This document shows positions 22,320 through 26,087 of a stretch of DNA of 37,014 nucleotides, piece after piece; positions within the stretch are counted from its first letter, which is position 1, and each line of letters starts with the position of its first letter. The stretch spans positions 1-37,014 of the forward strand of contig JAEOUE010000126.1 in assembly GCA_016839515.1 (NCBI GenBank). Reading direction: 5' to 3'. A program made the position numbers and the translations under genes. Source of the stretch: Candidatus Hodarchaeum mangrovi. Lineage in GTDB: Archaea > Asgardarchaeota > Heimdallarchaeia > Hodarchaeales > Hodarchaeaceae. Below the pieces are notes generated by a model that worked only from the letters and a program-made list of their open reading frames with translations, searched no databases and had not been told where the DNA came from.

Positions 22320-22739
22320 AAAATTGAGGCAAGTCAAACAAGGATAGCATGGATCTTAAGATGTTGCATAAAAAACAATTCGAAATTTAATTGATAAATG
22401 TTAATAAATGTTATGATTGATTCATTAACGTTTAAGGAATTTCTAGTCGTCGTTGATAATACTCGATGGTTAGCAGAAGGAACAAAACAGAATTCATAGA
22501 TTATAAACACAACTGTGAATGGAATAGTAAAAAAGTTTAATAATTCAGTAGATACGATCCAAGAAACATTCAAGAATTTTGTTACTGAGTCAGAAGAATT
22601 TTTTGCCTCTTCTGAGGAAGTTATAGCTAGTATCGTGGAACAAAATACTAGTATGGCGAAATTAACTTCCTCATCTCAGGACTTAATTTACCTTGGGAGT
22701 AGATCATCCAAACAAATCTTGAAATCTTGGATCTTTTAG
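22320..22739 (+). pseudogene. Decayed methyl-accepting chemotaxis protein signalling domain
   Basis: EFLVVVDNTRWLAEGTKQNS* (TAG 22497-99) resembles GFAVVAD.VR.LAE.T. SEEFFASSEEVIASIVEQNTSMAKLTSSSQDL resembles the methylation helix. A frameshifted IEASQT/G*HG lies upstream. Confidence 0.65.
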
Positions 22740-23419
22740 CGATGTGATTGTAGAAATTTATTAGTAAGTCGAATAAAACAGTTCTCCAGTCCTTGGGAAG
22801 AAGAAGGATCTTCAAAATCAATCTCACAATAATCCATATTATGTAGATATGCATAATGATATCCTTCCTTTGACGAAACACTGCTCTTTTCCAAAACTTT
22901 TGTCTCTGGCTTATGGTTTTTTTTCTTTTTTAATCTGAAATTTGATCTTTTTCGTAAAATAAAATGAAGAATAGGACTCAATTTCCCCTTCTGTGGGCGA
23001 ACTGTGTTTTTATCAGATAATTTGGTTACTTTCTGGGTTTTTTGAGGATAATTTTTTATTCCCAACAGCAGGATAGGAATATCTTTGGAGGGTACATGTT
23101 TCCGAAATTCCATTATCCAATTCGGAATTGCTGCAATGCTTTGTTTATCTTCTATTAAAAAAAAGATCATGCAAGCAGAAGCTCCTCGATAGTAACTTGG
23201 ACGTAACTTTCCGAAAAATTCCTGGCCAGCAGTATCTACAAGAATCAATTTAATATTATTATTTTCAATTGTAATTTTCTTTGTAGTTATATCTACTCCT
23301 AAAGTTGGAAGATAATTCTTGTCAAATTTATTCTCAGCATATCTTCTAATTAAAGAAGTCTTTGGTGAAGAGGGTGATCCAATAGCACAAATTTTGAAAA
23401 GATATTCATTTGAAACCAA
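22736..23419 (-). CDS. Rab-like small GTPase with degenerate G1/G4/G5 motifs and a polybasic insert
   Basis: YLFKIC, YLPTLGVD (G2), VDTAGQE (G3) and SYYRGA are intact. G1 reads GSPSSPKTS and G4 reads GIKNY. GGGGTGA RBS upstream. Confidence 0.9.
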   Translation of the reverse strand: MVSNEYLFKICAIGSPSSPKTSLIRRYAENKFDKNYLPTLGVDITTKKITIENNNIKLILVDTAGQEFFGKLRPSYYRGASACMIFFLIEDKQSIAAIPNWIMEFRKHVPSKDIPILLLGIKNYPQKTQKVTKLSDKNTVRPQKGKLSPILHFILRKRSNFRLKKKKNHKPETKVLEKSSVSSKEGYHYAYLHNMDYCEIDFEDPSSSQGLENCFIRLTNKFLQSHR

Positions 23420-23527
23420 TGTGTCACCCTCATGCTCACATTAAGTCCCGGATTTCATAAAACTATCCAGAGAAATTCTCCGACAATAAGTTGAAAAAAG
23501 AAATTGGTTATCGAAGAAGGAATTAGG

Positions 23528-23537
23528 AAAAAAAAAA
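23528..23537 (-). terminator. Oligo-T terminator of the H/ACA-like RNA
   Basis: 10 consecutive T on the minus strand immediately after the ACA box. Confidence 0.55.
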
Positions 23538-23615
23538 TGTGTGGTTGCATGGAATGGGTCAATCACAACAACATAATATGTTATATTCATGACCCCACTA
23601 TAACTTGCAACCAAT
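23535..23615 (-). ncRNA. Box H/ACA-like pseudouridylation guide sRNA (predicted target LSU rRNA helix 69)
   Basis: Basal stem UGGUUGCA/UGCAACCA; pocket AGUUAUAGU / UUCC; upper stem GGGUCA/UGACCC; K-turn (UGA...GUGAU); ACA box followed by a U-run; TTTTAAG box about 20 nt upstream. Confidence 0.8.
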
Positions 23616-23720
23616 TATGTTCTTTTAATTTAGTCTTAAAAGTTCTACTAAAAATACTTGATAAAGAATAAAAAAAACTGTGTTTATCAAACTTAATACA
23701 TTGGTTCTGGTAAGAAAATA

Positions 23721-26087
23721 ATGGTGATCAATAGCATGGCTGTAAAACCTGCTCTCTGTGGATTAATAATTCTTCTTTTAATTATTTCATTAAATTCTAG
23801 TAATTCTACCCTTAAGAATAATTATATAGTGGAGGATTCAATTTCTAAGATAATTCAACCAACTTATAATTTCGATAATAATATAGAATGGGATTTAATT
23901 TATCATAACACTCGTGAAGGATATTATCGAAGTCCAGGTTGGGCTACAACAGATGGGTGGAATAAAAGTGGGGCGGTGAGGGTAGGGCAAAATGTCATAT
24001 TAAGGATTCGTTCAGCAATAAATGATCTTACACGAGTCCAGATCCGCTATTGAGATGGTGAAGCTGGAGTCGAAGGATTTCGTGAGATGACAAAAATTGC
24101 TTCAACATTAGAATATGATTTTTGGGAAGGTACGATTTTATCTCCTCTACAACCGAGTGATTACTTTTATTCCTTTTTTCTAACTGATGGCACCGAAACT
24201 GACTATTATTCCGATGATGAGGGATTAGATGGTGGAGTAGGCAAAATGTATGCTTCCTATAATTCTGGACGAGATTTTGGTATAGTATTCTACGATCCAG
24301 GATTCACTACTCCAGACTGGCATAAACAAACAGTGGGGTACCAAATTTTTCTCGATCGATTTTTCAATGGAGATTTAAGTAATGATGCTATAGGAGATGG
24401 CTCAAGTGGAGATATCACATGGTTTGAGTGGGATAGCAATGGAGATGGATCCTTTACTTCAGAGGATGCACAACGAGTGTTTGCTATTAAACGAGATTGG
24501 ACAGAATTACCAACTGGAGGTAACGATTTTTTTGGTGGAGATCTTAAGGGTGTGTTTAATAAAATTGATTACCTTAAGGACCTTGGTATTGGTTTTATAT
24601 GGTTAAATCCTTTTACGGAATCACCTGACAATCATGGTTATTCTGTAGATAATTATAAATCAGTAGATCCCTAGTATGGGTCGATTGCTGCTCGTGAGAA
24701 TGGAATTGTAAGAAATAATATCACAGCCTCTTTGGAAATTTTTGATGAACTGGAGTCAACTCTCGAATTCAATGGGATAAAAATCATCTATGATGTTGTG
24801 ATTAATCATGTATCTGCTCAATCAATATACTTTCAGCGATTTGAAAACATGGACGTGGGAGATCTTCTTCTTCCAACTGCTTTTCAAGTTCCTGATCCTT
24901 ACCCATACGTAAAAGGAGCATATGAAGGTGTAACTTCTCTCTTTAACAATTGGTTCCGCTTTTATACCCGTAATCATGACTATGATGCTTGGTGGGGTTT
25001 CTACAATATTCCTACTTTGAAATATGATCAGACAATGAATATTGCTACTGAATTAATTACTGGAGCTAATTCTTTGTTCACATTTTGGGCTAATCATGGT
25101 GTTGATGGATTTAGGCTTGATGTTAATCCCGATTATGACGATGGTACAGGTTCCAGAGTCGTCAATAAACTGATTCGAGATCGTGTCAAGGTAGATAAAT
25201 CTGATAATATTATTATTGGTGAAGTTTGGGATAGAGCAAACACTTGGCTTACTGGAACCATGAATGATGGAGTGCAAAATATGCTGTTCAGAGATAATAC
25301 AATAATTTGGATCCGAGGAACTAATGTAGGGTATACAGATAACACTTATATCAATAAACTAGTATCATTCCAAGATTTTTATCCCCCAGAAGCTTATCAC
25401 TCTCTCTGGACAAATCTAGGAAATCATGATACTGCTCGAATACTTACAGAATTAGAAGAAATAAACGATCGTGTTTTGTTAGCTGCAGCATTACAATTCT
25501 TTGTTCCAGGAGTTCCAGTTATTTACTATGGCGATGAAATTGGATTACCTGGTGTAAGGGATCCTGATAGCAGACGACCTTTTCCATGGGGATCAGAAAA
25601 TCAAACAATGCTAAAGAATTACAAGGATCTAATTCAAATAAGGAAGAACTATAAGGTTTTTCAACGAGGTTCATTTTTTTCTATAGAAGATCAAGTTGAA
25701 GGAGTTTTATCGTTTGGACGTGAATTATCCTCTACGTCCCAAAGTGCAACAGTGGGTATTTTTAATAGGAATAAAAATCGTTTAGCTTATTTACTAAATT
25801 TATCAACCTTTCATGAGATCCAAGTAGGTGATGTATTAGTAGATCTCCTTAATAATAACACCACATATATAGTAGATGAGAATAAATCTATTAATCTCTT
25901 ACTTGAACCATATGGAAGAATGATTTTATTAAATGGAATCAGTGATCCTCTGACTCAAAGTACCTCTAAAACTATAAGTCAAAAATCCTCTAATTTTTCG
26001 CTAATACCATTACAAGTAGCACTTTTAACATTGATATTGAGCAAGAAACTCTATACTAGGAGAACCAAGAGAAAAAGGAAAAATTAA
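23721..26087 (+). pseudogene. Secreted, C-terminally anchored GH13 amylopullulanase/neopullulanase-like gene with two in-frame stops
   Basis: Three ORF-track pieces lie in one frame, separated only by TGA 24051-53 and TAG 24672-74. Motifs YQIFLDRF, GGDLKG, NHGY, DVVINH, GFRLDV, IGEVW, LGNHD and IYYGDE present. Signal peptide, and a Ser/Thr linker-TM-basic tail. Confidence 0.85.

Follow-up and report, generated by a model that had tools for sequence, protein, structure and literature searches.

A 37,014-nt stretch of the Candidatus Hodarchaeum mangrovi genome, referred to here as the window, very probably carries on its minus strand the gene for a single-hairpin archaeal box H/ACA guide sRNA, predicted to act on the U1911-equivalent in helix 69 of the large subunit (LSU) rRNA. 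The guide sRNA is estimated to be about 76–80 nt in size, extending roughly from 23613 to 23538 plus a short tail.

Re-reading the sequence placed every element listed in the preliminary description at its reported position on the minus strand. The basal stem (H1) is formed by eight perfect pairs between TGGTTGCA (23613–23606) and TGCAACCA (23549–23542), and the upper stem (H2) by six perfect pairs between GGGTCA (23595–23590) and TGACCC (23561–23556); both stems are evident from the letters, recovered by RNAfold and supported by covariation. The pocket enclosed by the two stems has strands of 10 nt (23605–23596) and 6 nt (23555–23550). Its 5′ side comprises the 5′ guide strand AGTTATAGT (23605–23597) and a pocket-top G at 23596, which is opposite A23555 and has no role in target pairing. 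Its 3′ side, ATTCCA (23555–23550), contains the 3′ guide strand TTCC (23554–23551), flanked by A23555 and A23550, which are both unpaired with the target. Stacked on the upper stem are the pairs U23589·U23562, G23588·A23563 and A23587·G23564, contributed by the non-bulged strand UGA (23589–23587) and the bulged strand (23567–23562) of a predicted K-turn; the latter strand consists of the bulge TGT (23567–23565) followed by G23564, A23563 and U23562. The apical (C) stem and loop of the K-turn hairpin occupy 23586–23568. The ACA box (23540–23538) is located 1 nt past the basal stem and is followed directly on its 3′ side by ten T residues (23537–23528), likely an archaeal oligo-T terminator. A TATA-like box, TTTTAAG (23641–23635), is positioned 22–28 nt upstream of the first basal-stem base. 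An overlapping second ACA on the same strand (23542–23540) was considered and dropped, as it is not conserved.

RNAfold recovered both main stems with a folding energy of -24.7 kcal/mol (z = -2.4), a stability equaled by four of 200 shuffled sequences; the K-turn is outside what this program can model. From our reading of the sequence, the apical stem of the window copy is compatible with a K-turn only if it contains an internal loop or a bulge of 2 nt. This stem is also very A+U-rich, whereas G-C pairs are usually described for the C-stem in PMC7991803.

The hairpin was compared with the rules derived for Pyrococcus guides as described by Muller et al. (2008, PMC2377435): an H1 of at least 7 bp followed by ANA or ACA, pocket strands of 5–11 nt, an H2 that measures 6 bp in all but one of 15 active interactions, and an ACA 14–15 nt from the target. 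H1 in the window has 8 bp with the ACA 1 nt beyond it, and the pocket strands of 10 and 6 nt are within the range. H2 has six Watson-Crick pairs, or seven if the pocket-top G·A (G·U in 13 of 22 homologues) is counted, and the spacing between H2 and the ACA (23555–23541) is 15 nt, or 14 nt with the G·A position included. The tandem G·A pairs and 3-nt bulge of a K-turn are present at the level of sequence, and a bipartite pairing around an unpaired UN can be formed with the LSU rRNAs of the same genus. There are two weak points. The duplex with the 3′ guide is short, at 4 bp including one G·U (5 bp in several relatives), and the same study describes the 3′ guide duplex as outweighing the 5′ duplex and a 4-bp duplex with two G·U pairs as inactive. 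The second is the extra pocket-top position, which would make H2 7 bp if paired; an H2 of this length is reported among the non-functional Pyrococcus interactions (PMC2377435).

The preliminary description had named a homologue search as a check on the RNA, and in this search 17 of the 22 genomes in the window's genus were positive, as were five of 40 genomes sampled from a second family. When 116 nt were compared by blastn with 60 relatives, three matches were convincing (G009, G015 and G014), each spanning query positions 33–109, which is exactly the segment from the basal stem to the ACA. A covariance model built from four sequences then located the RNA in 10 of 83 genomes of the class, all within the window's genus. 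With a 10-sequence model, the RNA was found as a single copy in each of the 17 positive genomes of the genus, in eight of 151 genomes of a phylum-wide sample (three of them from the second family), and as a single copy in each of the five positive second-family genomes. Model E-values in other genomes were as low as 1e-19. The 10-sequence model detected no copy in five of the 22 genus genomes, nor in 35 of the 40 sampled second-family genomes despite the presence of the same helix 69 in that family. Searches of the whole window against Rfam release 15 gave no match at the gathering thresholds, and raising the limit to E = 10 around the site returned only chance-level matches (E > 3) to unrelated families.

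Sequences from 22 homologues were aligned, and 16 of 17 stem pairs vary on both sides while 94.5% of the cells hold standard pairs. All eight pairs of H1 vary on both sides, with 99.4% of cells paired, as do six of the seven pairs counted for H2; two apical pairs beside the K-turn bulge also covary. None of 500 shuffles attained the observed values, and sliding the partner by one to three columns reduced pairing to 32–52%. The 22-sequence alignments were fitted to the model and are hence biased toward the structure; an alignment of the first four sequences by MAFFT alone already contains two compensatory changes in the upper stem. The single-stranded elements behave differently from the stems. 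The 5′ pocket core TATAGT is present in all 22 homologues, as is YTCC in the 3′ pocket (TTCC in 16, CTCC in six). The bulged K-turn strand has TGA in all 22, with GA on the opposite strand in 18 and AA in four, and the ACA is found at the aligned place in 20. The pocket-top position (G23596/A23555) is G·U in 13 of the 22 and non-standard in the remaining nine, including the window copy, and the apical segment is free in both length (4 to 40 nt) and sequence. Drifting stems combined with fixed loops are the pattern expected of a guide RNA with a conserved target. The archaeal single-hairpin H/ACA layout proposed in the preliminary description, with its lower stem, pocket, 6-bp H2, K-turn and ACA at 15 nt, is thus supported by covariation over 22 homologues.

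The flanking signals are less uniform. An A/T-rich box occurs 22–32 nt upstream in the first 15 homologues found, but the TATA-like box is weak evidence because the genome has a G+C content of 33%. At least four T residues within about 12 nt of the ACA are present in about five of these 15, and the ten-T run is not conserved as such. Individual copies also depart from the common form. The copy in G019 (L137) has a variable apical segment of 40 nt, compared with the usual 10–22 nt, with the K-turn and pocket intact. Two second-family copies, in G201 (L072) and G221 (L143), are without an ACA at the aligned position; their only ACA overlaps the last basal-stem base, which would give an ACA-to-pocket distance of about 12 nt. 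The ACA is described in PMC7075261 as dispensable for typical single-hairpin guides.

The window's own assembly (348 contigs, 91% complete) contains no LSU or SSU rRNA, so the target was inferred from relatives. The LSU rRNA search covered the window's genus, and the second family was examined at 11 LSU loci. Helix 69 reads GCGGGAGTAACTATAACTCTCTTAAGG in all three same-genus assemblies that cover it (G016, G005 and contig 38 of G001), with the layout GGGAG-TA-ACTATAACT-CTC. The same helix 69 is found at nine of the 11 second-family loci; the search pattern did not locate the region in the other two. The arrangement GGGAG / UA / ACUAUAACU / CUC that the preliminary description had predicted is therefore present in the three same-genus LSU rRNAs and at nine of 11 second-family loci. 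Guide and target occur together in four assemblies (G001, G016, G005 and G206).

In the rRNAs of relatives, we looked for U residues with complements of the two pocket strands on either side. The window pocket forms 4 + 9 bp around an unpaired UA (ggag-TA-actataact), including one G·U: TTCC pairs with the GGAG immediately 5′ of the target U, and AGTTATAGT with the 9 nt on the 3′ side of the unpaired UA. Within the same-genus rRNAs, 8 bp or more is reached at helix 69 alone, with nothing in the G016 SSU, and this is the best site across the relatives' 3,074 nt of LSU and 1,476 nt of SSU rRNA. Over these same lengths, shuffled pockets reached at least 13 bp in 14 of 3000 trials. The shorter pockets of relatives reach the same U with 4–5 bp plus 6–7 bp, and in six copies containing C for U in the 3′ guide the single G·U becomes G-C, indicating that changes in the guide fit the target. 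In an alignment with an annotated E. coli 23S rRNA of 2904 nt, position 1911 coincides with the unpaired U of the relatives' helix 69, which supports the earlier assignment of the U1911-equivalent as the target, and the equivalents of 1915 and 1917 are covered by the 9 bp formed with the 5′ guide strand.

Other pairing schemes were tried and rejected. Alternative registers of the 3′ guide gave no helix-69 match, and from our reading of the alignment the alternative register also fails wherever the 3′ guide has C or the pocket top has A. A version of the pocket in which G23596 and A23555 pair with the target likewise gave no match to helix 69.

The rRNA genes of these genomes have features of their own. 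G001 carries two different LSU rRNAs, on contig 57 (L034) and contig 38 (L042); the full-length LSU on contig 57 has a helix 69 reading GGGGG-TA-ACTATGACC and may be the rRNA of another organism binned into the assembly. Many genomes of the genus contain stand-alone pieces matching only positions 2721–2973 of the archaeal LSU rRNA model, sometimes two per genome (L032, L033, L037–L041, L045 and L049, in G001, G002, G003, G007, G010, G012 and G013). These pieces are located apart from the remaining rRNA, and may stem from breaks in the assembly, from duplication of the 3′ domain or from a 23S that is fragmented or split by introns.

The proposed mode of action is as follows. Transcription would start about 25 nt downstream of the TATA-like box and end in the T run. 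L7Ae would bind the K-turn, and Cbf5-Nop10 (with Gar1, if present) the basal stem and ACA box. The open pocket of the assembled RNP would then pair with helix 69 of the pre-23S rRNA, UUCC with GGAG and AGUUAUAGU with ACUAUAACU, leaving U-A unpaired at the pocket top and placing the U in the active site of Cbf5. Isomerization of this U, the equivalent of E. coli 23S U1911, would yield pseudouridine. Genes for three of the four proteins are present in the organism's own genome, with Cbf5 at 434 bits, Nop10 at 41.7 bits and two L7Ae-family genes, all over the cut-offs. Gar1 (PF04410) was not found in this 91% complete genome, using a model that detected only three of four control archaea. A search for relatives of the genome's own Cbf5 brought up distant sequences only (37–56% identity), mostly from archaea of methanogen type.

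The one-hairpin plan has close parallels among known guides. The single-hairpin H/ACA sRNAs described for Pyrococcus, of which Pab91 is an example, share the 6-bp H2, the K-turn or K-loop and the ACA at 14–15 nt, and likewise pair with 23S rRNA in two parts around an unpaired UN and use the same protein set (PMC2377435). Unlike these guides, the window hairpin carries an additional non-canonical position at the top of its pocket. It has no detectable sequence relation to them, with no meaningful match to any Rfam family even when the E-value limit was 10, and its target differs, Pab91 guiding position 2685 of the 23S rRNA according to the same paper.

Guides acting on helix 69 are described in two other archaea. 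Motif 3 of Pab40 in Pyrococcus abyssi targets position 2016, where it makes one of two highly conserved loop pseudouridines (PMC2377435), and stem-loop 2 of sR-h45 in Haloferax volcanii targets positions 1940 and 1942 (PMC7075261). Both are described as H/ACA hairpins with a K-turn and a pocket on the helix-69 loop region, and both as parts of multi-hairpin RNAs, whereas the window hairpin stands alone. The window guide is set four nucleotides further 5′ than these loop-site guides; its unpaired U aligns with 1911, whereas guides of the Pab40 or sR-h45 type would leave the U of 1915 or 1917 unpaired. We take the sR-h45 sites 1940 and 1942 to be the two conserved loop sites of helix 69.

An alternative is that the hairpin is a genuine H/ACA-type guide with another job: it might act on some other RNA, modify a neighboring helix-69 U through an atypical register, or mainly assist the folding of rRNA as a chaperone that modifies nothing. 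The target scan was confined to the rRNAs of relatives; the 3′ guide duplex is short, with one extra nucleotide per side at the pocket top; and the atypical pocket of sR-h45 stem-loop 2, with an unpaired UNUN, is reported to modify two helix-69 uridines (PMC7075261). Against such a role, both pocket strands are invariant in all 22 homologues and compatible with one register only, and helix 69 is the single best match in LSU and SSU rRNA. We therefore regard another job for the guide as unlikely, though it is the strongest of the competing explanations.

The genomic setting raises a further alternative. The spacer containing the hairpin is flanked by a Ras/Roc-family GTPase gene (22736–23419), on the same strand and 118 nt downstream of the hairpin, and by a divergent 110-aa ORF without a Pfam match. 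Pfam searches of 15 window proteins identified ordinary housekeeping genes and this one Ras/Roc GTPase. L7Ae binds K-turns in several RNA classes, and the hairpin might accordingly be a conserved K-turn element of another kind, for example a leader belonging to the GTPase gene or a regulatory element bound by L7Ae, with an incidental complementarity to helix 69. However, tblastn with four flanking window proteins gave no match at nine homologous loci (about 1.5 kb on either side), so the hairpin is conserved independently of its neighbors, and a run of ten T lies between it and the GTPase gene. In addition, conservation is higher in the single-stranded pocket than in the stems, whereas the reverse would be expected of an element with a purely structural role, and the ACA is at the canonical distance. 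A regulatory or leader element is accordingly very unlikely. Least probable of all is that the hairpin arose by chance in an A+T-rich spacer or belongs to a small coding frame: although two short ORFs overlap the region (23441–23614, minus strand, 57 aa; 23504–23671, plus strand, 55 aa) and the fold z-score of -2.4 is modest, this reading is contradicted by homologues with model E-values down to 1e-19, by compensatory stem changes across 22 of them and by apical lengths of 4 to 40 nt, which are incompatible with any reading frame.

Two further observations concern the window itself. Three DNA sequencing runs contain the stretch, all without differences, and they therefore provide no population-level covariation. 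No RNA run is listed as containing the stretch, and a metatranscriptome run (X24) compared with positions 23300–23900 yielded no contig; neither outcome bears on expression. Elsewhere in the window, an alpha-amylase-family gene lies in two consecutive plus-strand ORFs (24087–24674 and 24732–26087) that match profile positions 1–61 and 66–412, respectively; the gene may be genuinely split, or the arrangement may come from a frameshift or a sequencing error.

Different systems act on position 1911 and its surroundings in the other domains. In E. coli, the pseudouridine at 1911 is made by RluD, which also makes those at 1915 and 1917 in helix 69; this enzyme shares the site with the proposed guide but is a protein-only enzyme that works without a guide RNA. 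We take human 28S-3737 to be the U1911-equivalent, four positions before the 1915-equivalent. If this is correct, SNORA23 would be an RNA guide for the same helix-69 U on the same type of stem; the snoRNA differs from the window hairpin in being a eukaryotic two-hairpin H/ACA RNA with no K-turn. The target table in PMC6466398 lists 28S-3737 and 28S-4331 for SNORA23 (ACA23). In yeast, the helix-69 pseudouridines given in bioRxiv 10.1101/2024.02.02.578723 are at 2258, 2260, 2264 and 2266, with 2258 and 2260 corresponding to E. coli 1915 and 1917; by arithmetic on this numbering, none of the four is the 1911-equivalent. A non-exhaustive literature search, without supplements, found no archaeal guide for the 1911 site, and for Asgard or Loki-type archaea our search yielded no paper on H/ACA guides.

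Taken together, these results give good support to the view that the hairpin is a new, uncatalogued member of a well-known RNA class and that its target site is an unusual one among guides of archaea. The annotation of these uncultured archaea lacks H/ACA guide RNAs and the family is absent from Rfam; the 22-sequence seed alignment with its structure could become a catalogue family. The working principle of H/ACA guides as already known is unchanged by the finding. In these archaea the helix-69 stem takes what has been called a eukaryote-like form, and RNA-guided pseudouridylation of the U1911-equivalent, together with a GGGAG/CUCUC stem, might already have existed in the archaeal lineage taken as closest to eukaryotes. 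The hairpin family would then be the counterpart, possibly the ancestor, of the eukaryotic snoRNA hairpin for the same U (28S-3737, SNORA23). This suggestion is a doubtful one, to which we give a small chance of being right; what favors it is the shared target and the type of target helix, which do not imply common descent of the guides. For the archaea themselves, the finding makes a concrete prediction: one rRNA pseudouridine at helix 69, the helix of an intersubunit bridge, would be placed there by this guide.
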